Positions 10,506 to 53,902 of a stretch of 64,000 nt of DNA are shown in pieces. How positions within the stretch are numbered: the stretch's first letter is position 1; every line of letters begins with the position of its first letter. The notes beneath the pieces were generated by a model. It made no database searches, was not told the DNA's origin, and saw only the letters and a list, made by a program, of their open reading frames with translations. The translations under genes were made by a program, and so were the position numbers. Source of the stretch: a virus. The stretch covers positions 1 to 64,000 of IMG/VR virus record IMGVR_UViG_3300033182_000678, one strand, 5' to 3'.

Positions 10506-11244
10506 AATTCTCCTTGACTTGATTCCATACTCCCATCATTAATTGATTCCTTTGTGTCTTTTCAAAACCATTGAAGTGCCACACATGACCAACTTCCCAC
10601 ATAGGACATAATCCACCCAAAACACCTCTCAAGTGTAATTGTGATAAGTTAAACCTTTCATCAAGATATTTTAGTTCATGTTCACTCGCACGAATCATGT
10701 AGTTGACTGGTGTTTGGTCTGACCCTTTCTTAAGTGTTTCATGTTGTCTCTTTCTAAGTTCATCTTCATTCTCAAGATAAAAGTCTATAATTTCTTTACA
10801 TAAATCTTTGTGTTTCCTACTCATCACAATGAATCCACAATTAAAATAACTTGTCCAATCAAACTTAACATCAGGCCAGAAATCTTGATACCCTTTAATA
10901 CTATTATGTGTCCATTCAATATTAAACTTATCCATGACTGCACTGAACTCACCATCTGTTTGTTCAAAGAAGTTAGGACAATCCCAATGAACCATTGTGT
11001 CCACATCCACTAATGCAACTTGGTCATACTCTATCTCATTGGATTCAAGTATTTCATGTACCCACCATCTTTGCCATGTTGGTTTCATGATTGACTTGTC
11101 TCTTATTTCTTGGTCAAGTACAAACAACTCTACATTATTTTTCTTACACCAGTAGTCCCATGATTTGAAACACCATTCTTTATAATCTAATATATCAGGT
11201 GCACCATCCATACATGTCATAAATACTACATTTTTTCTGTCCAT
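10489..11244 (-). CDS. glycosyltransferase (GT8/GT34-like)
   Basis: DVDT, FNCGF, DQ, HFNG. Confidence 0.8.
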   Translation of the reverse strand: MDRKNVVFMTCMDGAPDILDYKEWCFKSWDYWCKKNNVELFVLDQEIRDKSIMKPTWQRWWVHEILESNEIEYDQVALVDVDTMVHWDCPNFFEQTDGEFSAVMDKFNIEWTHNSIKGYQDFWPDVKFDWTSYFNCGFIVMSRKHKDLCKEIIDFYLENEDELRKRQHETLKKGSDQTPVNYMIRASEHELKYLDERFNLSQLHLRGVLGGLCPMWEVGHVWHFNGFEKTQRNQLMMGVWNQVKENYELKK

Positions 11245-12125
11245 AAGACTCTTACTCCTTCAATGTAATCTAATAAATCAACACCAGGTTTCCAACCCAA
11301 TAACTCTTGTGCCTTTGTATCTGTACAAAGTGTTTCTTGAACTTCACCTGGTCTCTTTGGTATGTAAGTGTATCCCCAATCAAATGATTGTGCAACCACA
11401 TTGATTGAATAATTTTCACCTCTACCTAATTCAAATATTTCTCCATTCACTTTATCTTTAATTGTATCTAATACCAAGGCGTCTCCACACTTTACAATTC
11501 CATCCACGATATCAAATACATGTGTGAAATCTCTTCTCTGTTCACCATCACCTGTAATGGTTAATTCTTTACCCTCTTTGAATTGTTTCTCAAAGATACC
11601 AATTACCGTACAATATTCACCATCGGTTAATTGATGTGGGCCGTATACATTATAAAACCTACATATACTCATTGGTATATCATATGTTTTATGATACATC
11701 TGAATCACCTCTTCACCTTGCCACTTTGTAAAGGTATATGGGTTTTTATATACTCCACCATGAAAACTACTTGACCCTGCATATATTATTGGTATCTTTT
11801 CTTCTTTATTTCTAATCCATTCTAATAAGTTTAGTGTTCCAAGTACATTTGCCTCAAATGTTATTGCAGGAAACTCAAATGATGGTTGGATTCTTGGAAG
11901 TGCTGCAAGATGATAAATTATATCAGGTTTCTCCATGAAGAAATCAAAGTCAATTGCATCTCTTAAATCTACATTATAATATTTAACATTTTTATTGTCT
12001 ATTTCATTCTCTTCTTTACCTGTAGAATAGTTATCCAAACTAACAACCTTATGACCATCATCCAATAATCTTTCAATCAAGTTAGTTCCTATGAAACCTG
12101 CTCCACCTGTTACTAATACATTCAT
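11226..12125 (-). CDS. NAD-dependent nucleotide-sugar epimerase/dehydratase
   Basis: TGGAGFIG, YTFTK, RFYNVYGP, RDFTHV. Confidence 0.92.
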   Translation of the reverse strand: MNVLVTGGAGFIGTNLIERLLDDGHKVVSLDNYSTGKEENEIDNKNVKYYNVDLRDAIDFDFFMEKPDIIYHLAALPRIQPSFEFPAITFEANVLGTLNLLEWIRNKEEKIPIIYAGSSSFHGGVYKNPYTFTKWQGEEVIQMYHKTYDIPMSICRFYNVYGPHQLTDGEYCTVIGIFEKQFKEGKELTITGDGEQRRDFTHVFDIVDGIVKCGDALVLDTIKDKVNGEIFELGRGENYSINVVAQSFDWGYTYIPKRPGEVQETLCTDTKAQELLGWKPGVDLLDYIEGVRVLWTEKM

Positions 12126-12134
12126 CTTTTTCTC

Positions 12135-12824
12135 CTATATTTTATAAGTCTCAAATTTAGCTCCCTCTAATCTCAAGTTTATAAATGGATTGAGAGAACA
12201 AATATTCACATCATTAAAATTTAATAATTGTTTTAGTGCAATTGTTTCTTTTTCCATGTTGTTTAGAAATCCTTTTATACCATCCCAATTACTTGCAGAC
12301 TTCCAATCTTTTTCCACATACTCGTGGTAGTACATCTGACCATCAATCTCACCACCATCATGTCCACATAGTATGATGTTCTTTGCACCCATATAATATG
12401 CGATATGGATTGCAGTGGTTACGGTTGAACGACTAACAATAATTTCCTCATCAATATCAAGTTCCATCAACTCCATGTCAAAATCTTTTTTTCTTGGATT
12501 GTGTTTAAACATATAAGAATTAGGATTGTCACAATTGTTTAATCCCTTTTCTTCATAACCTTTATAGTACTGACTATAGATTAATGGTATGTCTTTTTCT
12601 TTAAGTTCTTGTACTAACCTTGGAAATCTTGGTTCTTCGTTACAATCTTTTACAACTACATAATCACAATCAAAGTATCTGAATATATCATTTACTCCAA
12701 GTACTATTTTGTTTTCAAAAAAACTCTTATCTATGTGATTAAGTGAAGGGCCTCCACTAACAATCCATATATCTTTATCTTTGTGTATATTCTGTAATGA
12801 TTTAAAGTCTTTCATAATTCTCAA
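12135..12824 (-). CDS. Maf/DUF115-like (sialyltransferase-fold) glycosyltransferase
   Basis: IVSGGPSL, GVN, AYYMGAKNIILCGHD. Confidence 0.7.
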   Translation of the reverse strand: MRIMKDFKSLQNIHKDKDIWIVSGGPSLNHIDKSFFENKIVLGVNDIFRYFDCDYVVVKDCNEEPRFPRLVQELKEKDIPLIYSQYYKGYEEKGLNNCDNPNSYMFKHNPRKKDFDMELMELDIDEEIIVSRSTVTTAIHIAYYMGAKNIILCGHDGGEIDGQMYYHEYVEKDWKSASNWDGIKGFLNNMEKETIALKQLLNFNDVNICSLNPFINLRLEGAKFETYKI

Positions 12825-13200
12825 TGTCTTCTAATGTTTGTTTCCAATTTGTAAATCTAATACCTTTATCATCAATATAAAACTTTGCATTAGGTTTTCC
12901 CCAAACAACCCTATCTACAAATTTATACATATCGTGTTCTCTTAACCACTCTTCAACTAACTCAACACCTGTCTTTTCATTAACCTTTGGTCTGTTAGGA
13001 TTTGCCTTACAAGTAAAAAGAACTATTTTGTATTTCTTACTTATCTCTTCTAATGATTCATAACTTCCTTCAATGACATCATCATAAATTGTACCATCAT
13101 GAAAACCTTTACTATTTCTATGAATCACTCCATCAAAATCAATCGCGATGGTATTTTTTTCATCTTGATTAATTCTTTCTATTTCTTTATTAATGTCCAT
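12802..13200 (-). CDS. HAD-superfamily phosphatase
   Basis: IDFDGVI, FT, KP, YIDDK. Confidence 0.85.
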   Translation of the reverse strand: MDINKEIERINQDEKNTIAIDFDGVIHRNSKGFHDGTIYDDVIEGSYESLEEISKKYKIVLFTCKANPNRPKVNEKTGVELVEEWLREHDMYKFVDRVVWGKPNAKFYIDDKGIRFTNWKQTLEDIENYERL

Positions 13201-13861
13201 TGTTTAATCTCTTGTATAAAAACTCTGCAAAGTCAAAGTCAATCGGTGTATCAATATCAACTGATTCTAAATCATCCATTACATAAAATAGTGGATTCTT
13301 TCCTACTACATTTTTATATTTTAACATGTTTTCTTTACTGATGATTGATATTCCAAAAGTTAAGTTATAAATCTCTGGTAAATCTTGTGAGTTAGGAACA
13401 TTATCCAAATCATAATTCAATGGTTTATTATCCAACCACAAATATTCTTTAACCCTTGATACTGAATTGTAACTATCGTGTCCCAAATCTAAACAATTAT
13501 TAAATCTGTTAATAAAATCATAATAAGTTTCAACCTTTACCAATGGTGCAGTACATGGTGTGTGCATTATATAATCTGTATCTGTAGTGAATGCTAAGTT
13601 TTCCCAATGTTCTGTATTGGTACATTCATTACTTGCATAATACTCTTCTCTTTTGAAGTAACTAACACCATACTCTTTTGATATTTCAATCGCCTCATCT
13701 GAATTAGTATTAACAACTATATCATCTATAGTATCAACTTGTTTTAGTGTTTCTAATTTTAGTTTTAGTAATGTAGTGTCACCAAAAGGTCGGAAGTTTT
13801 TGTCTTTAACTCTTTGAGAACCAACTCTTATTGGAACTACTGCTGTAATTTTCTTTCTCAT
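13190..13861 (-). CDS. CMP-ulosonate synthetase (NeuA-like cytidylyltransferase)
   Basis: PIRVGSQRVKDKN, TAPL, SQDL, DIDT. Confidence 0.88.
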   Translation of the reverse strand: MRKKITAVVPIRVGSQRVKDKNFRPFGDTTLLKLKLETLKQVDTIDDIVVNTNSDEAIEISKEYGVSYFKREEYYASNECTNTEHWENLAFTTDTDYIMHTPCTAPLVKVETYYDFINRFNNCLDLGHDSYNSVSRVKEYLWLDNKPLNYDLDNVPNSQDLPEIYNLTFGISIISKENMLKYKNVVGKNPLFYVMDDLESVDIDTPIDFDFAEFLYKRLNNGH

Positions 13862-14610
13862 AGTCTATCTTTTATTTCCTTTGCTCTTGTATTGTACTCT
13901 TTAGAAAATCTTTTATAATGTGATGCCTTACTCTCTAACCATAAGGATTCCCATTCCAACATCAATGAAATTATCGTACCCAACTTATTAATATTATTTT
14001 TATTCAATCCTAAAATTACATTTCGTGTCTCAATACAATCTAAGAATCCCTTATCAAATAAGTCTTGGATGAACTCTATACTCTTAGTACCAATATTACC
14101 ACCCATATAGGTTTTCATTCCTAATTTTTTTGATTCTTGTAGGATATAAGTTACTACTCTACAAATCTCATCTGACATTACATCTTGTTTTCCATACCCA
14201 AATGACTTTGTTAAATCTGAACGACCTACCACAACACCACTTAACATTTTACTTGTAGGTGAATCTAATATATAGTCTAAGTTTTTATATGCCTGTACAC
14301 TTTCAATGTTGATAAACTTATTACCATCATAAGGTAGTTTAGTAATAGACTCTGAAAACTTTTGTAATGCAAACCTTGATTCAATCATTGGTGCAACTAT
14401 ACCATCAACTTCTAAATCAATACAACGATTTATATCAGAAATAGCTTCACACCCACCAATCTTTACACTCAAATTTAAATCCAAGTCTCTACATATTTTA
14501 GATATTTTCCAAAGGTCTGAATCCAATACTCCTTCATCTTCAAAAGATTGTTTTATACCTATGACACCTTGGTCTTTAAGTTCATCTAATAATTTTACTA
14601 TATAACTCAT
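13858..14610 (-). CDS. HpcH/HpaI aldolase/citrate lyase family protein
   Basis: KIGGCEA, IVAPMIES, NIES, GRSDL. Confidence 0.8.
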   Translation of the reverse strand: MSYIVKLLDELKDQGVIGIKQSFEDEGVLDSDLWKISKICRDLDLNLSVKIGGCEAISDINRCIDLEVDGIVAPMIESRFALQKFSESITKLPYDGNKFINIESVQAYKNLDYILDSPTSKMLSGVVVGRSDLTKSFGYGKQDVMSDEICRVVTYILQESKKLGMKTYMGGNIGTKSIEFIQDLFDKGFLDCIETRNVILGLNKNNINKLGTIISLMLEWESLWLESKASHYKRFSKEYNTRAKEIKDRL

Positions 14611-15208
14611 TTTGTTTTTCTTGTTTCTCTATTGTCTTTGGATGATATATACATAATTCTTCATGTGGTGGTAGATGTGAGTATGTTTTACAACCTGTAA
14701 TTCTTTCATGTACAGGACTTTCCCATCTTATATCATCTCTGTTTCTAAAAGCCCTACTTTGATAGTCGGGGAAATTAATCCACCCTTGTTCTGTTACTGC
14801 CCAACCCCATTTTTTAATATGGTCTTGTGTGATTCCATCTACGGTATTGATTCTTGGAACATATATTAAATCCACATCATTTATTTCTAATATTTGTTTT
14901 AATTGTGACATCAGAACTTTATGTGGTATCTCATCTGCATCTAAATGAAATATGTAGTCACCTGTTGATTTCTCTATAACTGAATTCTTTTTTCTTGCAA
15001 AGTCATTATTTAACTCTTGTTCATAAAAAACTATATCAGGATATTGTCCATGTATGTATTCATCAAACACTCTCCAACATTGATAATCAGAATAATCATC
15101 ACATATAACAATTTCATCACCCTCATCACGATGTTCTACAAGAAACTCAAGTAGTTTCTTTATCTCTTCGTGTTCATTATGAACGGTTATCCCATAAGTA
15201 ATTTTCAT
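14582..15208 (-). CDS. glycosyltransferase family 2
   Basis: ITVHNE, DDYS, LDADE, VHE. Confidence 0.88.
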   Translation of the reverse strand: MKITYGITVHNEHEEIKKLLEFLVEHRDEGDEIVICDDYSDYQCWRVFDEYIHGQYPDIVFYEQELNNDFARKKNSVIEKSTGDYIFHLDADEIPHKVLMSQLKQILEINDVDLIYVPRINTVDGITQDHIKKWGWAVTEQGWINFPDYQSRAFRNRDDIRWESPVHERITGCKTYSHLPPHEELCIYHPKTIEKQEKQNELYSKIIR

Positions 15209-21353: not shown

Positions 21354-21914
21354 TTATACAATTTTATCAACAATCCCATATTCTAAACATTGTTCTGAGT
21401 CAAAGTAGGAATCATTTCTTCCTGATAACTCCCAAAACCTTGCATCTTTTTTTGTAACTTCACCAAGTAACTCATTGATATCTTTTTGTAAATCTTTTAA
21501 ATGGTCAACACCTTTCATCACATCTGTAGTTTTACCCGCCTCAAATGCTGAACCCTCATGAACCATTACGGTTCCATGTTTTGTCATTGTTCTTAAACCT
21601 GTACCACATGATAATAATACTGATGCAGCACTCATACAAGTTCCAACACAATGTGTATTTACCTTTACATCTAATCCTCTAATATAATCCACTAACCCTA
21701 ACATTGCATAAACATCACCACCATATGAAGAAATGTTCAAATTGATTGGTGTATTTGGATTAACTCTTTGTAGGTAATCAAGTTTGATAATTGTTGAATA
21801 TAGTGAATCAATATCAAACTCATAGTTCATGTAGGTGGTATTGGTTTTTGAATTAACACCCCACTCCATTTCCTTAATATAAAATGATTCTTCATCTCTA
21901 AAATTGTTTCCCAT
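21354..21914 (-). CDS. clpP: ClpP-like protease
   Basis: ISSYGGDV, CMSAAS (Ser), MVHE (His), YGIVD. Confidence 0.85.
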   Translation of the reverse strand: MGNNFRDEESFYIKEMEWGVNSKTNTTYMNYEFDIDSLYSTIIKLDYLQRVNPNTPINLNISSYGGDVYAMLGLVDYIRGLDVKVNTHCVGTCMSAASVLLSCGTGLRTMTKHGTVMVHEGSAFEAGKTTDVMKGVDHLKDLQKDINELLGEVTKKDARFWELSGRNDSYFDSEQCLEYGIVDKIV

Positions 21915-22345
21915 TATTTACTCCATATTGTTTTTAGTTGTTTGTCTTCTACACCAAATTTCATTATGATTGTTTCTACTTGTTGTGGTGTTAATATTTC
22001 CAAGTACTCATCTACTTCCTTTGAACTACATTCAAAATATTCACACAAATATTCCATAACCCAAGTGTTCACTTTAGACTTATGTTTTGATTTTGTGTAT
22101 TTAAGAAATGTTCTACCCTTTGGTAATATATCAATATAAAACTGATACACATTCTTAGGAGCCAACTCCCAATACTTTTGTATCTCATTCACTACTTGAA
22201 TCCACTCTGGTTTCATTGATAGAAATCTATGCACCATATAGTTTGAGAATGTTTTTTTATCACCCTCACTTAATGTATCCCAATATGTAGGACTCTGTAC
22301 ATTTGTGATTTGTTTTACATGGTCAAATAAAGATTTAGTCTTCAT
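21914..22345 (-). CDS. clamp loader small subunit (T4 gp62-like)
   Basis: LFD..., YMVHRFLSM, LPKGRTFLKY, YFECS..E..EY. Confidence 0.7.
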   Translation of the reverse strand: MKTKSLFDHVKQITNVQSPTYWDTLSEGDKKTFSNYMVHRFLSMKPEWIQVVNEIQKYWELAPKNVYQFYIDILPKGRTFLKYTKSKHKSKVNTWVMEYLCEYFECSSKEVDEYLEILTPQQVETIIMKFGVEDKQLKTIWSK

Positions 22346-23024
22346 TTTTTACTACTTTCCAACCTGACTTTTTAATAATATTATCACTTCTACCTTTCCA
22401 ATAAAAGAACTCACCATCAAATGTAAAAATATCTTTTGTATCATAATAATCTTTATCATGATTTGATAACATAGACTCACCTCTTAAATGTAAAGTTTTA
22501 TCCAACATGATATCCCAACCACTAATAAGTCTCATTCCAAGATGTATATCATCACCATCAGTAAAGTTAGTTCCCATAACTACTGGTATACATTCTGTAG
22601 AACCATAACCATGCATTACTTTTTGTACACCCAACTCTAACATAAACTCTATATCATCTATTGATGTTTCTTCTGCACCTATCAACAAGTGTTCTATAGA
22701 ACTACAATTCGGTCTTAGTCCACTTTCTTTTAACATTCTTACCATTGTAGGTATTAATATTAATTTTGTAGGTTTTAAATTTATCATTTGTTCAAACACA
22801 TCAGTTGAAAACTTATCACTATATATAGTTCCACCAATTTGTTCCATAGGTCTTGCCATAATATATGACCCAATTGTATGTCTTGGTATAAAATCTAATA
22901 GTACATCTGATTTATTCAAGTTAAATACTTCTATATTTGAATTGATTGAATGTTGTAAAGATTCTTCACTATGTAAAACTTCTTTTGGTTTTCCTGTAGA
23001 ACCTGTTGTATTAAATTTGTTCAT
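22335..23024 (-). CDS. minimal ANL-superfamily adenylation (AMP-binding) enzyme
   Basis: TTGSTGKPK (A3), GYGSTE (A5), YDTKD (A7), GRSDNIIKKSG (A8). Confidence 0.8.
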   Translation of the reverse strand: MNKFNTTGSTGKPKEVLHSEESLQHSINSNIEVFNLNKSDVLLDFIPRHTIGSYIMARPMEQIGGTIYSDKFSTDVFEQMINLKPTKLILIPTMVRMLKESGLRPNCSSIEHLLIGAEETSIDDIEFMLELGVQKVMHGYGSTECIPVVMGTNFTDGDDIHLGMRLISGWDIMLDKTLHLRGESMLSNHDKDYYDTKDIFTFDGEFFYWKGRSDNIIKKSGWKVVKNED

Positions 23025-23463
23025 TTATAACTCTCCCTATTAATTTATTAAAATCTGACCAAAATAGATAACATGGTGCATCATCTCTGAAACCAAATCT
23101 ATTTGGATTATTTTTTTCTATAACTTTATTTTCATGTAACATTTCTGAAATTTTTATTGTTGGTGAATCAAAAGTGGTTGACCACCAAAGTGTTTTTGTA
23201 TTTGGATGTAACCTCTTTGTTAACAATAATATTTCTTTTAGTAGAACTTTAGTGAGATTTTTTTTTCTCTCTTGTTTATAAATATAAAAGTTTCTTGTGT
23301 TAATGACATTTTTTTTACACCAAATATTAACTAATCCAAGTGGTCTATCTTCAGTACTAAATTTAAAAAATCTCATCCCTTTTTCATAAAAAACTTCAGG
23401 ATTATCTTCTTGTATCTCTTTAAATTCAGTATACTTTATTTCCTCTACCAATATGCATCGCAT
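23011..23463 (-). CDS. putative GNAT acyltransferase
   Basis: FYIYKQERKKNLTKVLL resembles GNAT motif A. Confidence 0.55.
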   Translation of the reverse strand: MRCILVEEIKYTEFKEIQEDNPEVFYEKGMRFFKFSTEDRPLGLVNIWCKKNVINTRNFYIYKQERKKNLTKVLLKEILLLTKRLHPNTKTLWWSTTFDSPTIKISEMLHENKVIEKNNPNRFGFRDDAPCYLFWSDFNKLIGRVINEQI

Positions 23464-24866
23464 GTTATAACCGAATTATTACTTTCACCTGCGTGATATC
23501 TATCTTCTGTCTCTAAGTCTAATGAATAATATAAAGACTCTGAAGTTGTTAATGATATTGATGATACTGATTGTGTTGTGAACCCATTCACTACAAATGT
23601 ATCATTAACTTTGACATCTCTTATAGGTTTAAATTGATATTTTGAACCACTATAGACCATAATTTGGTCTTCAGGATTCACTCTTGTTGAATTATTTAAT
23701 TCATAATAACCCCAACTTGGTGTTACAACCAAACTATTTACTGAACTTGTTGATTCACTAAAGTCACTTATAGAACCTGTCCAATTACCTTTATCAATAA
23801 TAAATTGAGGCCAAGTCAACTTAGCTACTGATGACTGAAATGCAGTGTCTCTTTTTGGATAATTGTTAATCACTACACTCTTAACTACATCACCTGAACT
23901 AACATCACTAATTCTTTTCACCGAACCATCTGACATTGATACTGGAGTGTTACCCTCAAAATGTCCTGTTTGCCATATCCTTACATTATTAGAATCATAA
24001 ATATTAGTATTTTGTGAACCAATAGTAGTTGAACCACTTGGTTGACCAAACTTTCTGTAGTTGGTTACATAAGTTTCGTTTCTTGTAAGGTATTTGACAC
24101 TACCACTTCCAATCAATATAACACTCCTAAAAGCTCTGTACCTATCGTTATCTATTTCAGGTTCAATATATTGTTCTACATAATCAAAGTTATTGTAAAC
24201 TTGATTCCTATCTTCTGTAAAATCTGCAAAAGATACACCTACTCCCATATCTTCAGTTGGGTCTTTGATAACAACATCAGGTACATTTGTTGGATTACTA
24301 AATGATGATGAAATATCCCTACCGAATGCAGGAAAGAAATCTTCACCTAAACTACCTGTTATAAAATTACGAAAGTTAGTCTTGTTCTCACATAATACAT
24401 CAACATTATGATAATTTAAATGTCCTTGTCTTAATACATAATGTGTTGAAGATGGTGTTGGGATAATCTCATCCCATAAATTATACTCATGAGTAAATGT
24501 ACATCCTGAAGATGACAAACTTGAACTTAGGTGTTGTCTAAAAATATCTAAAGTATCTTCAACTCTTTGTGGTTCTATATTGAAGTTCAAATAGTCTTCA
24601 TAAAAAGTACATGTAGTGTGGCCAGAACTTGTAATATGACTGACTAACTCAGGAACATCAAACATTACTTTCATTCTACCACTTAACCCAACATTAGTGT
24701 TCATCTCTAATAGTTTTATTGAGCCACTTTGTGGTATCCAATCCATTGCATATAACATACCCTCATGTTCACTATCCCAATAGGCACTACCAGTAAACAG
24801 ATTTCCTATCTGTAAACTTTTTTCTTTTAATAAATTTGCGTAATTTTGTCTTTGTGAATCATTCAT
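23445..24866 (-). CDS. circularly permuted ATP-grasp ligase fused to a degenerate C-terminal Hint domain
   Basis: D...LLEMNTN near N-terminus, VIK...DMGVGVSF, EQYI; Hint-like FEGNTPVSMSDGSVKRISDVSSGDVV...YSLDLETEDRYHAG. Confidence 0.7.
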   Translation of the reverse strand: MNDSQRQNYANLLKEKSLQIGNLFTGSAYWDSEHEGMLYAMDWIPQSGSIKLLEMNTNVGLSGRMKVMFDVPELVSHITSSGHTTCTFYEDYLNFNIEPQRVEDTLDIFRQHLSSSLSSSGCTFTHEYNLWDEIIPTPSSTHYVLRQGHLNYHNVDVLCENKTNFRNFITGSLGEDFFPAFGRDISSSFSNPTNVPDVVIKDPTEDMGVGVSFADFTEDRNQVYNNFDYVEQYIEPEIDNDRYRAFRSVILIGSGSVKYLTRNETYVTNYRKFGQPSGSTTIGSQNTNIYDSNNVRIWQTGHFEGNTPVSMSDGSVKRISDVSSGDVVKSVVINNYPKRDTAFQSSVAKLTWPQFIIDKGNWTGSISDFSESTSSVNSLVVTPSWGYYELNNSTRVNPEDQIMVYSGSKYQFKPIRDVKVNDTFVVNGFTTQSVSSISLTTSESLYYSLDLETEDRYHAGESNNSVITCDAYW

Positions 24867-24881
24867 ATCTATAAATATTGA

Positions 24882-26294
24882 TTATTTAAGAAAGTTTTCA
24901 TTTCTTATCCAATCGTAACCCACATATCCCATTTTCTTATGTATATTGATTACTTTGTTACTCCAACCATCAACATATGCTAAATCATATTTTATGTTTT
25001 TTTTAATGAGATAATTAGTAATGTAAGTGAACCAGTGTTCTATTAACTTACCATGTTTCCTTGAAGTTCTATATTTAGGTAAACATACCCAATACGCACT
25101 ATAAGAATGGTCTTTAGGTAAGTCCATATCAATGTTCCAACCATGGTCATAAAAAGTAAACTCTCCCATAAACCACCAACTCCATTGTATCAATTTACCA
25201 TCATGAAACATTGCACATAAACTATGTCCATCTTGTATTCTTTTCTTTGCAGTTTCTAAATCCCATAACCAAGTTTTTCTTGTCTCTTCATTAATCCATT
25301 CCATGTTCATTCTATCCCACTCCTTGAGTCCTTGTAGAATTTCCCATGTCCATTTATCAAGTTTCTCAATAGTATCAATATCTTCATAAACAACATCACC
25401 AATATCTGGTTTTTGAATTTTATGCTGATGTATAGGTCTTATACTAAACCAATAATTCTGATGGTTATCACATAACCAACCATTAGATTCATCAATTATA
25501 CTTTTTCTAAGTTCAGTTTTAAACTTATCATCATTAGAATAATTAAAGTTAATTGAATCAAAGTCAACTTTCTTATTATATTTACTCAACACATCTACAA
25601 ATCTTTCTAATCCCCAACCAAAACATGCAGTCATTTCAGATTCATGTATGTTAAACTTATCAATAAACTTTCTACCATGTAGATTAAATGAACCTATCGC
25701 TACATGTCTATCCTCATTAGGAATCCATGCTCTAATCTCAATCTTAGAACCACTTTTGATTTGTACTTTTCTTTTTAACTCTGATTTATCTCCGAAGAAT
25801 GGGTCTGATGCCACCTCATAAAAATAATCAATACCAAAGTGTTCCAACATTTGTGATGTCAAATGCATTGCCTTGTTTAAGTTATCCTCACAATATTTCT
25901 CAGTACCAACAAACACTATCTCTGATATAGTGAAGTTAAACATTCTTTCTAAATCAGTACATTCCTCTTCTATTCGTGTACATTTACTTGTCATCACATA
26001 TGATTTATTCAATATACTTTTACCTTGTAGAAAACTATAACAATGATAACATCCTGTAGGTGAGCATATTCCTTTTTCTTCACCATGATATGAATTAATT
26101 ATAGATACTTGATTTGAGAATGATTCCATGTAACCTGTTTTATAGGCATTATCCATTGATAAATGTGATGGTGTCCATAGTCTTTCAGAATTGAATTCTT
26201 CTGACATTTTGTATGTTAGATTCTCTAAACCAACTAAACTCTTAACTATGTCACCACTTATTACTTGTAGTCCATCTCCAACTTTAGTATACAT
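24882..26294 (-). CDS. SerRS-like amino acid:[carrier protein] ligase fused to a C-terminal GNAT-like domain
   Basis: SPTGCYHCY, KCTRIE, ERMFNFTISEIVFVG, ASDPFFG, GSFNLH, TACFGWGLERF; C-terminal VCLPKYR...N...IHKKMGY. Confidence 0.8.
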   Translation of the reverse strand: MYTKVGDGLQVISGDIVKSLVGLENLTYKMSEEFNSERLWTPSHLSMDNAYKTGYMESFSNQVSIINSYHGEEKGICSPTGCYHCYSFLQGKSILNKSYVMTSKCTRIEEECTDLERMFNFTISEIVFVGTEKYCEDNLNKAMHLTSQMLEHFGIDYFYEVASDPFFGDKSELKRKVQIKSGSKIEIRAWIPNEDRHVAIGSFNLHGRKFIDKFNIHESEMTACFGWGLERFVDVLSKYNKKVDFDSINFNYSNDDKFKTELRKSIIDESNGWLCDNHQNYWFSIRPIHQHKIQKPDIGDVVYEDIDTIEKLDKWTWEILQGLKEWDRMNMEWINEETRKTWLWDLETAKKRIQDGHSLCAMFHDGKLIQWSWWFMGEFTFYDHGWNIDMDLPKDHSYSAYWVCLPKYRTSRKHGKLIEHWFTYITNYLIKKNIKYDLAYVDGWSNKVINIHKKMGYVGYDWIRNENFLK

Positions 26295-26533
26295 TACTCA
26301 CTCGGTTGAATTTGACTCATCATCTTTGATGGAATACTTCCACAATTACCACATGCAAATACTTGAATCGGAACTATTGCCTCTTTACCATTTGGACTCA
26401 TCAATGCAGATATTCTTTTCAAAAAGAACGATTGTATGAAAGATGCATTATTACATTCTTCACATAATATTGTTTCAGTATCACTAATATCTATTGGTTG
26501 TGGTGGGTCTTGGTATTTTCTATCTTTACTCAT
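26294..26533 (-). CDS. small Zn-ribbon protein
   Basis: CEEC...CGNCG. Confidence 0.7.
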   Translation of the reverse strand: MSKDRKYQDPPQPIDISDTETILCEECNNASFIQSFFLKRISALMSPNGKEAIVPIQVFACGNCGSIPSKMMSQIQPSE

Positions 26534-27453
26534 TTTACTACTCCTATTAGTTCAGTAAACATCGCCATAATATTTATCTCTTTATCCACAACCACTGCAT
26601 CACTTTGTTGATATTGAGCTAATAATAAAATACACTCCGCCACATGTCCTCTACCCCAATCATCTACGGTATCAAATAATAATCTGAATAAATCAGAGAA
26701 ATCTGTTACTTTTGAATCTGCCAATAGTTGTCTTATATTTTTAAACGAATTCTTTTTATCTTGTGTTTTTAGTATCTCTAACACTTTAACTTTGTAGTCA
26801 TTCTGAATACTCATACCCTCATCAATAACTAACTCACCATTCACCACTTGTCTCTGTGCACCATTAATTACTCTTCTTAAATCAGGAAAACCACTATTAA
26901 CTATAGTTACAATATCATTAACATCTGCCTTAACTCCCTCTTTAGTTAATATATCAGATAAGTGAACTGCAACTTGTTTTCTATCTGGTGGTATAATCTG
27001 AAATGATTGACACCTTGATTGTATTGGGTCAATGATTCTCTCAACATAATTACAAGTTAAAATAAACCTACAATGTTTTGAGAATGTTTCCATTAGATTA
27101 CGAAGTGCGGCCTGTGATGCAGGTGTAATGTAATCTGCCTCATCAAGTATTACAACTTTCATATTGGAAAACCCAATAGTAGATGCAAAGTTCTTTACTT
27201 TGTCTCTGACCATTTCAAGTTTCCTTTCATCAGATGCATTGATATATAGATAATCACATTCTATATTATTAACGAGTAGTTTTGCCAAGGTTGTTTTTCC
27301 ACCTCCTGCACGCCCATATAATAATAAATGTGGTATATCGCCTGATTCAAGATACACTTTCACTTTTGATTTTAAGTGTTCGTTTCCTATAAATTCATCT
27401 AATGTTCGTGGACGATACGATTCCACCCATAAACTATTTTTTATACTATCCAT
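26530..27453 (-). CDS. clamp loader AAA+ subunit (gp44/RFC-like)
   Basis: WVESYRP, GRAGGGKTT, NASD, DEAD, SRC. Confidence 0.95.
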   Translation of the reverse strand: MDSIKNSLWVESYRPRTLDEFIGNEHLKSKVKVYLESGDIPHLLLYGRAGGGKTTLAKLLVNNIECDYLYINASDERKLEMVRDKVKNFASTIGFSNMKVVILDEADYITPASQAALRNLMETFSKHCRFILTCNYVERIIDPIQSRCQSFQIIPPDRKQVAVHLSDILTKEGVKADVNDIVTIVNSGFPDLRRVINGAQRQVVNGELVIDEGMSIQNDYKVKVLEILKTQDKKNSFKNIRQLLADSKVTDFSDLFRLLFDTVDDWGRGHVAECILLLAQYQQSDAVVVDKEINIMAMFTELIGVVK

Positions 27454-27521: not shown

Positions 27522-27964
27522 AACTTTCTCCAAATCCAAATTGGTTCACAAAACTTTTTCCCATTTGTCGTTGGAGGTCAATTTAAAGGCCCCTATAAAT
27601 ATCTGTGACCATTGGTCGGGCTCTATTAAACTCAACCATAAATGTCCTTCTTCATGTTGATATAAATAATAAGTGTGTCCTAAGATTGGTGTAAAATTAT
27701 ATTTAGCCTCATAAACTAATTTATTCCACTCATATTCTTTCATCAACTTGATATATTCTTCTTTTATCTCATTATATCGGGTTTCAAAATAATGATTAGT
27801 TGATACCATATGTTCTTGTTTCCAAGAACTAATATTAGTCGGTTTTATCGCTGGAGCACCAACATTGCTCCCATAAGGTAAAATACCAGGATTATCAACT
27901 ACATTGTCTGATTTCTCCTTTTTTTTATTCACAACTTTTTCCAAATCCAAATTGGTTCACAAAA
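27522..27964. repeat. 32-bp direct repeat (27522-27553 and 27933-27964, 1 mismatch) flanking the DUF2452 gene
   Basis: aacttt(c/t)tccaaatccaaattggttcacaaaa read at both sites. Confidence 0.85.
27546..27950 (-). CDS. DUF2452-like protein
   Basis: LPYGSNVGAPAI, F.PILGHTYYLY, LSLIEP.QW; start may be GTG at 27932. Confidence 0.75.
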   Translation of the reverse strand: MDLEKVVNKKKEKSDNVVDNPGILPYGSNVGAPAIKPTNISSWKQEHMVSTNHYFETRYNEIKEEYIKLMKEYEWNKLVYEAKYNFTPILGHTYYLYQHEEGHLWLSLIEPDQWSQIFIGAFKLTSNDKWEKVL

Positions 27965-29158
27965 TCTTTTATCTTTAGTCTCTTCTGCCTTTTGTATTGT
28001 TGATTCTTGAAACCTCTCATCAGATGCTCGTGCCATTCCTGCACCACCACTATTTGGTCTCTTTGCCATCTCCATTCCAATACAACCTTGATATTCTGAA
28101 TCACTAAAGGTACTTATGAAATCATTCATAGGATTACAAATCTCTACCATATTTTTTTCACCTGCAGTTCGTGCAAATACATCCGCAATATTCACTAATA
28201 GATATCCACCACTCTTGATAGAAGGCCATATTTTTTTTATTGATTTCTGTAGAAAATTTTTATTCCAACTATCAATGTCTTTATACCTAACCCAACTTTG
28301 TGTATCATCATAACTATATCTCTCAACACTAAAGTAAGGTGGTGATGTGAATACGGTATCAAACATATCTTCATATTCTTTATAATCAACATCTTCGGCA
28401 GGTGATTCCAAGAACTGACAATCCTTATCAACCTCAAAGAACATATTTCTATGTGTATTATAGAAATCTTTTTGTTCCTTGTATATCGGATGGTTTTCTT
28501 TTCTTGGGTCTATTCCAAGATAAAATGCTCCTGTCTCACTTGCATAGAATCCTGCAAGTCTATCACCCCAACCCGCAGAGAAATCTAATATATTTCTACT
28601 CTGTAGTTTATCATATAATACTTTTGCAACATTTGGTTTGAATTGAGAACAAATATACTTTCTCAATCCAATCATTACACGAAATGCACTCTTATCAATC
28701 TTAGGTAACTTCAGAGAGTACGCAGACCCAATCAAGGTAGTCATAAACTTATGACTTTCCCATGTTCTCTGTGGGCCTGGTGCAATAGTTCCATCAACAC
28801 TCCACCTATTCTTTTGTTGGAAGTAATTACTTGCGTCATTACCTGTATTGTTTCTTTTGAAGTATTGTTGTTTACCTTCAAAAGTTAAATCATATCTATA
28901 CTTTGTACCCTCACGAGCAAACCATTCTCCTTCAACTAAAATTTCATTATGTCTCATACCTTTTAGTTTCTGAAGTTGTTTCAATGCGTCATTCTCGGTG
29001 ATATCCATGTATGGTGGTGGGTAAGACATCGCAACCTTTGCAAGACTTTCTCTTACATCTTGTTTATCAAAGGTTTTTTTGATGTAGTCCCACTCTTCCT
29101 CATCTATGAAGAGATAAGGTTCCATATCATAGAATTTGTCAAAGTACGATAGATACAT
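27929..29158 (-). CDS. SAM-dependent DNA amino-methyltransferase
   Basis: DFSAGWGDRL (motif I), FTSPPYF (motif IV). Confidence 0.8.
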   Translation of the reverse strand: MYLSYFDKFYDMEPYLFIDEEEWDYIKKTFDKQDVRESLAKVAMSYPPPYMDITENDALKQLQKLKGMRHNEILVEGEWFAREGTKYRYDLTFEGKQQYFKRNNTGNDASNYFQQKNRWSVDGTIAPGPQRTWESHKFMTTLIGSAYSLKLPKIDKSAFRVMIGLRKYICSQFKPNVAKVLYDKLQSRNILDFSAGWGDRLAGFYASETGAFYLGIDPRKENHPIYKEQKDFYNTHRNMFFEVDKDCQFLESPAEDVDYKEYEDMFDTVFTSPPYFSVERYSYDDTQSWVRYKDIDSWNKNFLQKSIKKIWPSIKSGGYLLVNIADVFARTAGEKNMVEICNPMNDFISTFSDSEYQGCIGMEMAKRPNSGGAGMARASDERFQESTIQKAEETKDKRFCEPIWIWKKL

Positions 29159-29947: not shown

Positions 29948-32455
29948 TCAAAAAAATCTTTCAATACTTTTTGTTTTATCTACTACATTGTCCCATGACA
30001 TTGCCTTGTAGAACATACCAATTTTCTTTGTCATTGCCTGTTCAAACATTCTATCATGGTCAATGTGAGTCTTAATTAATTCTAAAATCTGTGGTGGGTC
30101 TTCATAACCTTTATATGCAATTGTATCAAACCCAAACTCATTGTTCTTTAGATACACCCATTTAATCTTACTACCATTTATAATCTTTTCGTATTTCCTA
30201 CCCTCATACCAATATTCTAATAATGAATTATAATTGATAGCGGCCTTAACATGAACAGGTGTTCCTTTTTTATATGTACTGAATGGTGAATCATCATCTT
30301 TCACTTCATACTTTCCAATACCCTTTACACCAATTGGATTCGCCATAACATCATAATGTAAGTTAACCATGTTTCTTTTAAACAATGATATTCTTTCATC
30401 AATCTTTTCCTTTGGAACATCTGCCAATATATCTTCCAATACCTTACTTAATAATTCTTTCATAGCAACTGCAAAGTTACTACGAACCGTATCCAATCCT
30501 TTAACATGAATCTTATTTACCTTACGACCTGCATCATTGATAATTCTTAATCCATATCTTTTCTTTGTAATGAACAACCCACTCTTTGCAACTACCTCTT
30601 GTTTAATATCAAACACATGGTTTTCTTTCTCTACATTACAGAACTTCTTACCAAAGAAATTATAACTTTCATTTAGATAATCTTGTACCTCACTACAAAT
30701 CTCCATAATCCTTTGTGTCATCATTGTATCACTTAGTTTTTGATTAGGAAATCTCTTCTCAACCAATGGAATAGCAGAGGCAAAAATAGAATCAGTATCT
30801 ATGTATATCACATAATCATCATCAGTACCGAGTTCTTTATTATAAAAGTGATTCGTTATCTTCTTACTGAACTTAATTAAGGCTTGACCAGTGAGAGTTG
30901 TTGCCTCTGCATTATCCAAATCATAAAATCTAAATACAGGTAATCCCAATACACCATACATGGAATTCAAAATAATCTTTTGTATGTATTGTCTTCTATC
31001 AAAGTAATCTTCTAATTCTTTATTACCCTCATCATGATACTTCTTAACAAGTTTTCTCATCTCAACTCTTTCGTTGAACCACTTAGTTAGAAGTGCAGGA
31101 ATCAATCCTTGTTTATCTGTACGATATAAAACACCATTAGATGCAATACTAATCTCATTGGTTAATAGATAGTTTTCTAATTCACCATTTGTAAACTTAC
31201 CAATTTCTTTTTCTTTCTTATCTATCATGGTATATGTTTTTACCAAGTCCTTTTTTAAGAACTCCTCTGCATCCCAACCCTCAACCTTACCTAACTTAGT
31301 CTCAGGTGATATATTTAGACTACGAATCACACTTGGATACATAGATGTAATGTCCAAGTCATAAACCCAATCATGTTTACCTGCCTGTGGTTTCTGTACA
31401 TATGCACCTGCAAACTTATCATCATCAAATGTTTTTGGTCTTGGTGGTTTGTTTGGTGCAACAATACCAAGTTTTTTCAGATAAACTAATATTGCACCCT
31501 CAAGATATCTTGAACTCATAAACACTTCTTCATAAGGTATGTGTCCAAGGTGTGCAATACCTCGTGATATCTCAATCAAATTTAATTTCTTATCCAACTC
31601 AACTAATATTTTTACATCTCGGATGTTGTAATCAATGAATGTCTGTAAGTCATTTTCATACAAGTCATTAAGTGTTCCCTCATAATCAACCTTTTTTATA
31701 CCGACCTCTACTTCACCAATATAATCTAATCTATAACTTGATTGTTGAGAGAATGAAAACTTTCTATATAAAGATAGATAGTCTAAACAACTAACTCCTG
31801 CAATAACATATCTCTTTTTAACTTCATTGTAATATACTTCTGAGATAGGTGATAACAAGTTTGCCACACTAACACCCAATACATTTACTGCCCTATTATA
31901 TAGATAAGGAATATCAAAGAAGTCTGAGTTCCAACCACTTAATATTGTTGGTTTGATTTCTAAATACTTTTGGAAAAACTTGTTTAACATTTCGTATTCT
32001 GTATCATATACCTCTACAACTTTATTATCTTTTGTATATGATTGAAGTCTTTTCTTTGCATCAAACACATATGTAAAATATGTTTCTGTCATGAAATCAT
32101 ATAGTGCAATAGAAGTGATTACATTGTTTGCCTTCATCACATCAGGAAAACCATATGTAACCTCTACCTCAATATCAAAGAATACTTTTCTATGTCCATC
32201 TGAAACTTCATCTGAATCTGTATATTGGTCAACTAAAAATCTTGTTGTTGGTGGGACATCTGATTCATGTAGTGTTGGGTCATCTTTATCATAATTAAAT
32301 ACTTTCTTTACTCTATCACCATATAGTGAAACATGTTGACCATTTGAATTTTTTACATAGGCATATTTTTTGTAAGGAACAATAAGATAACCTCTTTTGT
32401 CATCAAATACATGCATTCTTTGTTTACGCACATCATACCAAATATTCTGATACAA
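29948..32455 (-). CDS. DNA polymerase family B
   Basis: DIE exonuclease I, DITSMYPS, KIILNSMYG, YIDTDS, KKRY. Confidence 0.97.
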   Translation of the reverse strand: MYQNIWYDVRKQRMHVFDDKRGYLIVPYKKYAYVKNSNGQHVSLYGDRVKKVFNYDKDDPTLHESDVPPTTRFLVDQYTDSDEVSDGHRKVFFDIEVEVTYGFPDVMKANNVITSIALYDFMTETYFTYVFDAKKRLQSYTKDNKVVEVYDTEYEMLNKFFQKYLEIKPTILSGWNSDFFDIPYLYNRAVNVLGVSVANLLSPISEVYYNEVKKRYVIAGVSCLDYLSLYRKFSFSQQSSYRLDYIGEVEVGIKKVDYEGTLNDLYENDLQTFIDYNIRDVKILVELDKKLNLIEISRGIAHLGHIPYEEVFMSSRYLEGAILVYLKKLGIVAPNKPPRPKTFDDDKFAGAYVQKPQAGKHDWVYDLDITSMYPSVIRSLNISPETKLGKVEGWDAEEFLKKDLVKTYTMIDKKEKEIGKFTNGELENYLLTNEISIASNGVLYRTDKQGLIPALLTKWFNERVEMRKLVKKYHDEGNKELEDYFDRRQYIQKIILNSMYGVLGLPVFRFYDLDNAEATTLTGQALIKFSKKITNHFYNKELGTDDDYVIYIDTDSIFASAIPLVEKRFPNQKLSDTMMTQRIMEICSEVQDYLNESYNFFGKKFCNVEKENHVFDIKQEVVAKSGLFITKKRYGLRIINDAGRKVNKIHVKGLDTVRSNFAVAMKELLSKVLEDILADVPKEKIDERISLFKRNMVNLHYDVMANPIGVKGIGKYEVKDDDSPFSTYKKGTPVHVKAAINYNSLLEYWYEGRKYEKIINGSKIKWVYLKNNEFGFDTIAYKGYEDPPQILELIKTHIDHDRMFEQAMTKKIGMFYKAMSWDNVVDKTKSIERFF

Positions 32456-53201: not shown

Positions 53202-53902
53202 TAATCTAAATAAATTTCACTCCATAGTTTTGTGGTTTCAGGAAATGTTTTCAACATAATCTCTTTTAATCCTCTGGCATATTCTTGTATCTCTACTTGT
53301 GATGTTGCCTCATCTCGTAGTTCAATAAAATTCATAATACTTTGAAATGATGCTGTCCACCAAACTTTTGTATAGACTGTTAATGGTAATATACTTCTGG
53401 CTTGTTCTTTTGCCATTCCCATATCTAATAGTTGTCTGTAACAAGAGATTGCAACATTCTGTCCCATTTCCCAAACTTTTTTTGCATTCTTTTGATTCTC
53501 CACTAACCCATCACTTGCCTGTTTGTTATCTTCTGATTGTTTTCTAAATTCTGTTGGTTCATAAAATTCATCATAAGGAACATACCTACCACTAATCTCA
53601 TTCCATGCATGGTCTTTAGTAGGATGATTACTTGTGGTTTCAATACCTACGACATGTTTGTATGCTTGTCTCATAACAAATTCAGGTGCCTTAATTATAA
53701 ACATACAATGTTGATGTCTAAAAGGACTGAAATGTTTATGTTTAATCAAATACTTGGATAGTTTCCTATCTTTCTCCGTAAATGTTTCACTAAACCCATC
53801 AAACGAAACTCTCGCCGCATTTACTGGTGTTAAATCATCACCAAGTGTATCCACTAATTCAATATATCCTTTATCCAATATATCAATTTTCATTTTGTTC
53901 AC
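53201..53902 (-). CDS. thyX: flavin-dependent thymidylate synthase
   Basis: AARVS, HFSPF, NEISGRY, EQARSILP, LR...Q.EI. Confidence 0.93.
   Translation of the reverse strand: MNKMKIDILDKGYIELVDTLGDDLTPVNAARVSFDGFSETFTEKDRKLSKYLIKHKHFSPFRHQHCMFIIKAPEFVMRQAYKHVVGIETTSNHPTKDHAWNEISGRYVPYDEFYEPTEFRKQSEDNKQASDGLVENQKNAKKVWEMGQNVAISCYRQLLDMGMAKEQARSILPLTVYTKVWWTASFQSIMNFIELRDEATSQVEIQEYARGLKEIMLKTFPETTKLWSEIYLD

Follow-up and report, generated by a model that had tools for sequence, protein, structure and literature searches.

A class II synthetase-like domain fused to a GNAT-fold domain in an accessory cassette of marine T4-like phages

The fusion gene and its two domains

We describe a gene for a two-domain protein in a stretch of 64,000 nucleotides of viral DNA (positions 1 to 64,000 of IMG/VR record IMGVR_UViG_3300033182_000678), called the window below. 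The record as a whole has 79,974 bases, with a CheckV completeness of ~42%, and its source is an uncultured marine T4-like phage. The gene encodes 470 amino acids (aa) and joins in one chain a domain like those of class II aminoacyl-tRNA synthetases (aaRSs) and a domain of the GNAT acyltransferase fold. An original prediction, made from the letters alone, had taken it for an aa:CP ligase (amino acid:[carrier protein] ligase) fused to a GNAT, with no carrier protein nearby. The open reading frame (ORF) has 12 syntenic homologues in IMG/VR, and its ATG shares one base with the TAA of the upstream 79-aa gene (TAATG). The parts of the gene are as follows.

24882..26294, minus strand: aaRS-like/GNAT fusion gene, 470 aa
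25575..26294, minus strand: N-domain, residues 1-240, zinc-type class II core of the aa:CP ligase / atypical SerRS lineage
25485..25574, minus strand: variable linker, residues ~241-270, of low pLDDT, with a 17-residue insert in the homologue at locus L002
24885..25484, minus strand: C-domain, residues ~271-470, GNAT fold

N-domain. Sequence comparison and modelling both place the N-domain closest to the aa:CP ligases. It matches the NCBIfam model NF005479, 'amino acid--[acyl-carrier-protein] ligase' (E 1.2e-26, 93.5 bits, equivalog cut-off 357), two atypical SerRS models (E 1e-18 and 2e-16) and Pfam tRNA-synt_2b (E 2e-6). The best sequence match in PDB is Bll0957 of Bradyrhizobium (3mey and seven more entries, phmmer E 2.3e-13), and the next is the type-2 SerRS of Methanopyrus. 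With a full-length AlphaFold2 (AF2) model (pLDDT 76.5, pTM 0.75), Foldseek returned the Bll0957 structures first (3pzc/3mf1, E ~1e-13), then methanogen SerRS, ThrRS and other SerRS.

The zinc positions Cys/Glu/Cys (in GCY, SE and TAC) and the class II motifs 2 and 3 had been picked out in the original prediction, and alignment with Bll0957 bears out both. C82 (GCY), E125 (SE) and C224 (TAC) fall on Cys151, Glu196 and Cys299 of the 3mey chain, which we take to be the zinc ligands (native Cys131, Glu176 and Cys279, given a 20-residue tag offset in 3mey), and R107 and E109 of motif 2 and R231 of motif 3 align likewise. All six residues are invariant in the 12-sequence family alignment, where identity goes down to 39%. 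We read the predicted adenylate-forming site as intact and as belonging to a thiol-acylating lineage. Because only ~30 residues stand ahead of the class II core, with no coiled-coil and no methanogen-type N-domain, there is no tRNA-binding domain, as had been claimed. A basic helix (residues 168-186) aligns with the segment altered in an engineered carrier-specificity variant of Bll0957, and it keeps K170, K174 and K184 invariant in the 12-sequence alignment.

The Bll0957-type ligases (Bradyrhizobium; 3mey, 3mf1, 3pzc, 4h2s; NF005479) have in common with the phage protein a truncated class II core of the atypical SerRS lineage with motifs 2 and 3 and a Cys/Glu/Cys zinc site, and neither has a tRNA-binding domain. 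The phage protein differs from them in its low identity (~20%), its shorter N-terminus, the absence of an adjacent carrier, the GNAT domain fused at its C-terminus and its occurrence in a phage.

C-domain. The claim of a GNAT domain held for the fold but found no counterpart among sequence models: residues 241-470 have no GNAT match in Pfam, NCBIfam or PHROG, and no sequence library names them. The C-domain was modelled alone from a 16-row alignment (pLDDT 82.3). VIA-align of this model gave Z of 12.8 with the glucosamine N-acetyltransferase 5kf1, 12.0 with VipF (6wqb), 11.5 with the tandem GNAT MAB_4324 (7q3a), 11.3 with MprF, 11.2 with MshD, 10.2 with FemX and 9.5 with Sbb17; 144-162 residues were aligned in the matches to 5kf1, 6wqb and 7q3a. 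Foldseek E values reach down to 6e-7. On the strength of the model we consider the GNAT fold established and the acyl donor putative.

The residues invariant in the C-domain family are H384, W386, W402, R409, D437, D442, W444, K454 and W462. The sequence after beta4 runs P-K-Y-R-x-x-[RK] and continues with G, N or a three-residue insert, and the beta4-alpha3 loop is basic. The beta5-alpha4 stretch, D-G-W-N-x-K-A-I ... K-x-G-Y, appears GNAT-like, and the tyrosine of helix alpha4 that is usual in acetyl-CoA GNATs is not conserved in the family.

The family is small. Searched in full with HMMER, 1.84 billion representatives yielded eight clusters at E <= 0.001, the weakest hits coming from a 52-aa fragment and from short parts of a repeat protein of 2848 aa. 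Four other full-length proteins with the C-domain were scanned with Pfam, and three of them have the class II core. The fourth, P0011 (635 aa), has an ANL AMP-binding domain with its AMP-binding_C subdomain ahead of the same GNAT-family domain. The C-domain is always fused to an adenylating domain, which is a class II core in every full-length member except P0011.

Carrier search, insertion slot and partner genes

Carrier search. No carrier-like ORF had been seen near the gene in the original prediction, and we found none in the window record or in the 12 related islands scanned (39-93% identity). The whole 79,974-base record was searched for an acyl carrier protein (ACP) and a phosphopantetheinyl transferase (PPTase) with PF00550 (PP-binding) and PF01648 (PPTase), and neither gave a match; PF00550 also had none in four related phage records of 30-48 kb. 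Because the record is ~42% complete, this absence holds for the record and not for the whole genome.

The sole INPHARED record with a homologue is MT835751, where the gene is non-fused (25% identity). Its segment 9488-18273 (MT835751.1, L020, 'UNVERIFIED bacteriophage') includes IS66 transposase and ABC-2 transporter genes and looks bacterial. The record served as a positive control. The ligase-like gene is followed there by an 86-aa PP-binding-like ORF (E 7e-4, 20.3 bits, cut-off 20.8), and the third gene in the row has a weak BtrH_N-like match (E 0.003, 18.2 bits, cut-off 29.7). The classical three-part arrangement appears to be detectable where it is present, by side matches that are both weak. 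Judged by gene content, the fused GNAT domain of the marine phages takes the place of the carrier and the separate transferase.

Slot. The fusion gene belongs to a cassette of four genes that is inserted in the clamp-loader operon of the replication module. These genes and the edges of the slot are as follows.

22335-26294: cassette, four genes
23445..24866, minus strand: companion gene, 473 aa, with ATP-grasp-type motifs and a C-terminal Hint domain
23011..23463, minus strand: probable small GNAT, 150 aa (Pfam Acetyltransf_10 E 0.07)
22335..23024, minus strand: truncated ANL core, 229 aa (Pfam AMP-binding E 9e-20)
26294..26533, minus strand: 79-aa zinc-ribbon gene (zn79), backbone, upstream edge of the slot
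21914..22345, minus strand: gp62-like clamp-loader A subunit, downstream edge of the slot (Pfam Phage_clamp_A E 1e-4)

In all 12 IMG/VR loci with the fusion (39-93% identity) it lies between the zinc-ribbon gene and the gp62-like gene, the latter being syntenic in all related loci. In Microcystis phage Mel-JY01 the genes for the clamp-loader ATPase, the zinc-ribbon protein and the clamp-loader A subunit follow one another with no gene between, and we therefore treat the zinc-ribbon gene as backbone and the slot as an insertion hot spot. We also weighed the 79-aa gene as a possible carrier or substrate and dismissed it, since it is a backbone gene that is also present in the cassette-free Mel-JY01.

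Cargo in the slots of more distant relatives comprises radical SAM/SPASM genes, sulfotransferases, a PIG-L deacetylase, an MFS transporter, 2-oxoglutarate (2OG) oxygenases, GT25 and DXD glycosyltransferases, a DegT fragment, methyltransferases, an Asp/Asn hydroxylase-like gene and a Vut_1 transporter. At loci L008-L011 the slot forms an island, hypervariable and up to ~14 kb long (for example L009:1718-15423 and L010:6574-16290), and in L010 a PIG-L (MshB-family) deacetylase and a sulfotransferase come directly after the fusion gene.

P0011 occupies the same zn79-gp62 slot in another T4-like lineage of ~29% G+C (L016:305-9723; also L015 and L018). It was found in metagenome contigs, with no match among viral contigs. 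It is accompanied there by a tryptophan-halogenase-family gene (E 3.5e-84), a FabH-like ketosynthase III and three radical SAM/SPASM genes, and this cargo looks like a phage-borne natural-product cluster.

Companion gene. The only constant partner of the fusion is the 473-aa companion, present in 11/11 related loci that extend far enough; in L010 and L011 two other genes stand between it and the fusion. In the alignment its N-terminal half has ATP-grasp-type motifs that are invariant but permuted: D-x4-SGS-x3-L-E-x-N-T around residue 50 (ExN at 54-56), P-D-x-v-x-K (PDvviK here) at 196-201 and E-x-Y-I at 231-234. In ATP-grasp ligases ExN binds Mg, the lysine binds ATP and E-x-Y-I is the hinge. 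An ATP-grasp assignment has an Atlas score of 0.77, which is a lead only. Pfam gave weak Hint matches only for nine members of the family, and no library confirms an ATP-grasp fold. As a lead, then, the N-terminal half may be a permuted ATP-grasp-like domain. The C-terminal half, which matches 6tmm/6y75 by profile (E 3e-6), is a degenerate Hint domain, and since its Cys1 position is not conserved, being His here, the domain is probably non-splicing. A complex prediction for the fusion and the companion scored 0.00 (mark 0.32).

Small GNAT and mini-ANL. The other two cassette genes are confined to the closest relatives. Atlas feature matches of the 150-aa protein to viral GNAT clusters (0.95-0.96) are lead-level, and its profile found nothing significant against PDB. 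The 229-aa protein covers positions 170-336 of the 384 in the AMP-binding profile, so that the first ~170 are absent, and no AMP-binding_C subdomain was detected in it. In the window, L001 and L003 the two genes share 14 nt. One base fewer near GTTAT(A)AATG turns them into a single ORF of 375 aa in L005 (10832-11959), a natural fused version. We regard the two as a predicted second GNAT-plus-adenylating pair in the same cassette.

Proposed reaction and alternatives

The fusion protein probably activates a small amino acid and passes it to an amine acceptor. Our preferred and still tentative reading is that of a two-step aminoacyl transferase, free of any carrier protein, in a phage accessory cassette. 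The class II domain, with its motifs intact, would bind a small amino acid and ATP and form the aminoacyl-adenylate. The aminoacyl group would then go to a pantetheine-type thiol, as in the closest relatives. Because no carrier protein is available, this thiol is most likely coenzyme A (CoA), either free or held by the GNAT domain. The GNAT domain would move the group from the labile thioester to the acceptor amine, and the fusion would stop the unstable thioester intermediate escaping. The companion, and in this phage also the small GNAT and mini-ANL, may add or prepare further amide-linked pieces, and the product would probably be a small metabolite or sugar-type molecule made during infection.

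CoA thioesters are the normal substrates of GNATs, and an ANL enzyme followed by a GNAT is the usual pair of acyl-CoA ligase and acyl-CoA:amine N-acyltransferase. P0011 has exactly the activity order of acyl-CoA ligase plus glycine N-acyltransferase conjugation in one chain, whereas in the window protein an unrelated class II aaRS-like activator replaces the ANL enzyme. The original prediction had proposed that the enzyme uses a host or distant ACP, CoA or another thiol and that the GNAT domain passes the aminoacyl group on. This proposal is partly supported, and it gains indirect support because the sister phage has an ANL enzyme, with its thioester-forming C-terminal subdomain, fused to the same GNAT. 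The FabH-like enzyme beside P0011 is of a family that uses CoA thioesters, and this too speaks for CoA.

On the ligase side, Bll0957 was crystallised with CoA (3pzc), and aa:CP ligases are described as aminoacylating the phosphopantetheine thiol and also free CoA (PMC5370406, which cites Mocibob 2010 and 2013). On the GNAT side, SbzI and SbzC of altemicidin and SB-203208 biosynthesis have the GNAT-fold transfer of thioester-bound acyl or aminoacyl groups in common with our proposal (PMC13518217). They differ in that theirs are dedicated carrier proteins and ANL enzymes from separate genes.

Other observations weigh against carrier-free transfer from CoA. CoA-using GNATs and the tRNA-using Fem/MprF/Sbb17 enzymes match the fold of the C-domain alike (Z 9.5-12.8). 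The pyrophosphate loop departs from the canonical R/Q-x-x-G-x-G/A, its R409 being invariant and its glycines not, so that CoA binding by the C-domain is putative. The score of the N-domain lies far under the equivalog cut-off of NF005479. With more than half of the genome missing from the record, a carrier gene may lie elsewhere, or the host ACP may serve. Finally, the sequence discloses neither the amino acid nor the acceptor.

The main rival, possible but unlikely in our judgement, follows the logic of mycothiol synthesis. The aaRS-like domain would ligate an amino acid to an amine, as MshC does, and the GNAT domain would N-acetylate the alpha-amino group with acetyl-CoA, as MshD does. MshD and the glucosamine N-acetyltransferase are indeed among the best fold matches of the C-domain, the MshB-family deacetylase and the sulfotransferase directly follow the fusion in L010, and sugar-related genes are at hand, with glycosyltransferases and a DegT aminotransferase in the islands of relatives and a sugar-nucleotide module at 11226-15208 of the window. 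These sugar genes, however, are variable island content and not constant partners. The known relatives of the N-domain acylate thiols, not amines, the ANL-GNAT variant is more naturally an acyl-CoA ligase with an N-acyltransferase, and the alpha4 tyrosine of acetyl-CoA GNATs is missing from the conserved positions. On this reading MshC and MshD share with the phage protein the use of an aaRS homologue to join an amino acid onto an amine, with a GNAT completing the product, but MshC is a class I enzyme and a separate protein and MshD is a tandem GNAT, so that the likeness is one of logic only.

An improbable alternative is a classical aa:CP ligase that charges the host ACP, or a carrier from the missing ~58% of the genome, with the GNAT domain unloading it in the manner of SbzI/SbzC. 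A carrier protein is the known acceptor of the family, the basic helix 168-186 aligns with the carrier-specificity segment of Bll0957, carrier-reading GNATs exist (PMC13518217) and the record is incomplete. Against this, characterised systems and MT835751 have the carrier gene next to the ligase gene, and 0/12 loci have one there in these phages. The aa:CP ligases are also reportedly specific for their own carriers, which counts against a borrowed one.

Quite improbable is a macromolecular acceptor, either a phage or host protein, modified on a lysine as with PoxA, or a DNA base, which would make the cassette a modification system. The cassette does lie in the replication module near a DNA-methylase-like gene, and the Hint domain of the companion is of a kind common in phage surface and toxin proteins. 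A hypervariable slot, filled with unrelated cargo in relatives, accounts, however, for this position, there is no target to name, and the 80 kb have only ThyX and no ThyA-type hydroxymethylase.

Very improbable is a route through tRNA, in which the N-domain, or else the host, provides the aminoacyl-tRNA and the GNAT domain is an aminoacyl-tRNA transferase of the Fem/MprF/ErdS type: MprF, FemX and Sbb17 are among the fold matches and aaRS/GNAT-fold fusions are known (the fungal AspRS-MprF-like enzyme and LysX; PMC2922099, PMC9437257), but the protein has no tRNA-binding domain and an N-terminus even shorter than that of Bll0957, its lineage is reported not to charge tRNA (PMC5370406), an ANL domain can stand in for the class II core although ANL enzymes do not charge tRNA, and the window has no tRNA gene. 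ErdS / fungal AspRS-DUF2156 and LysX share with the phage protein a class II activator and a GNAT-fold aminoacyl transferase in one polypeptide; theirs are full tRNA-binding aaRS modules that work with aminoacyl-tRNA, whereas the activator of the phage family is swappable for ANL.

The carrier-free two-step transferase can be put in a bolder form, which we consider doubtful taken as a whole. CoA or pantetheine on the GNAT domain would be the non-covalent swinging arm of a minimal carrier-free peptide-bond module, collecting the amino acid at the tRNA-synthetase-like site and bringing it to the GNAT site, and phages would mix such modules, with class II or ANL activators on one GNAT and a permuted ATP-grasp enzyme, to make an aminoacylated metabolite or glycan in the course of infection.

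To our knowledge, the physiological role of aa:CP ligases is still unsettled, ~15 years since they were discovered. A ligase of this kind that is naturally fused to a transferase, and has shed its carrier, indicates what comes next, namely transfer of the acyl group to an amine, and the whole reaction is assayable in a single protein. If the carrier-free reading is true, a tRNA-synthetase core feeds a GNAT without tRNA or carrier protein, which bears on ideas that tie thioester chemistry to coded protein synthesis and adds a compact amide-forming catalyst to the auxiliary metabolism genes of phages.

The fusion is a new arrangement of two known parts. We found no paper that describes an aaRS-like/GNAT fusion of this kind, and reviews of aaRS paralogues give aa:CP ligases only alongside carrier proteins (PMC9437257, PMC5370406). 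Also new here are the swap of ANL for the aaRS-like domain on the same GNAT family, the shared slot with backbone genes at its edges, the ATP-grasp-like/Hint protein as constant partner, the GNAT/mini-ANL pair in its split or fused form and the MT835751 control.

The record and its replication module

The record has ~31% G+C, and nearly all of its genes are on the minus strand. The T4-type replication module runs in the order family B polymerase, gp45-like clamp, methylase-like gene, gp44-like ATPase, 79-aa gene, the four cassette genes, gp62-like clamp-loader A subunit, ClpP-like protease and PD-(D/E)XK-like nuclease. Members of the module not listed above are as follows.

29948-32455: family B polymerase
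next in order: gp45-like clamp (phrog_223)
27929-29158: methylase-like gene, 409 aa, between the clamp and clamp-loader genes
26530..27453, minus strand: gp44-like clamp-loader ATPase, backbone (phrog_168 E 2.5e-83)

The 409-aa gene has weak DNA-methylase matches (N6_N4_Mtase E 3.5e-4; phrog_12517 E 1.7e-13) and is kept in most related loci. A ThyX-type thymidylate synthase is encoded at 53237-53860 (E 1.3e-37), and the 80-kb record yielded no ThyA-type enzyme. With ThyX as the only such enzyme, the idea of DNA hypermodification gained no support.

The module at 11226-15208 encodes a NAD-dependent epimerase/dehydratase, a MptE/Maf-like protein, a cytidylyltransferase, a HpcH/HpaI aldolase and a GT2 glycosyltransferase. 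The module might be a source of acceptors for the cassette, with which its association is distant.

No RNA runs are listed among the sequencing runs that contain the stretch. Those listed are marine and seawater metagenome DNA runs from ~8 studies, and they contain 0.19-0.36 of the words sampled from it.

The ClpP-like protease gene (E 4.5e-28) is at 21354-21914, directly after gp62, and the islands of L009 and L011 each have a second, internal ClpP-like gene.

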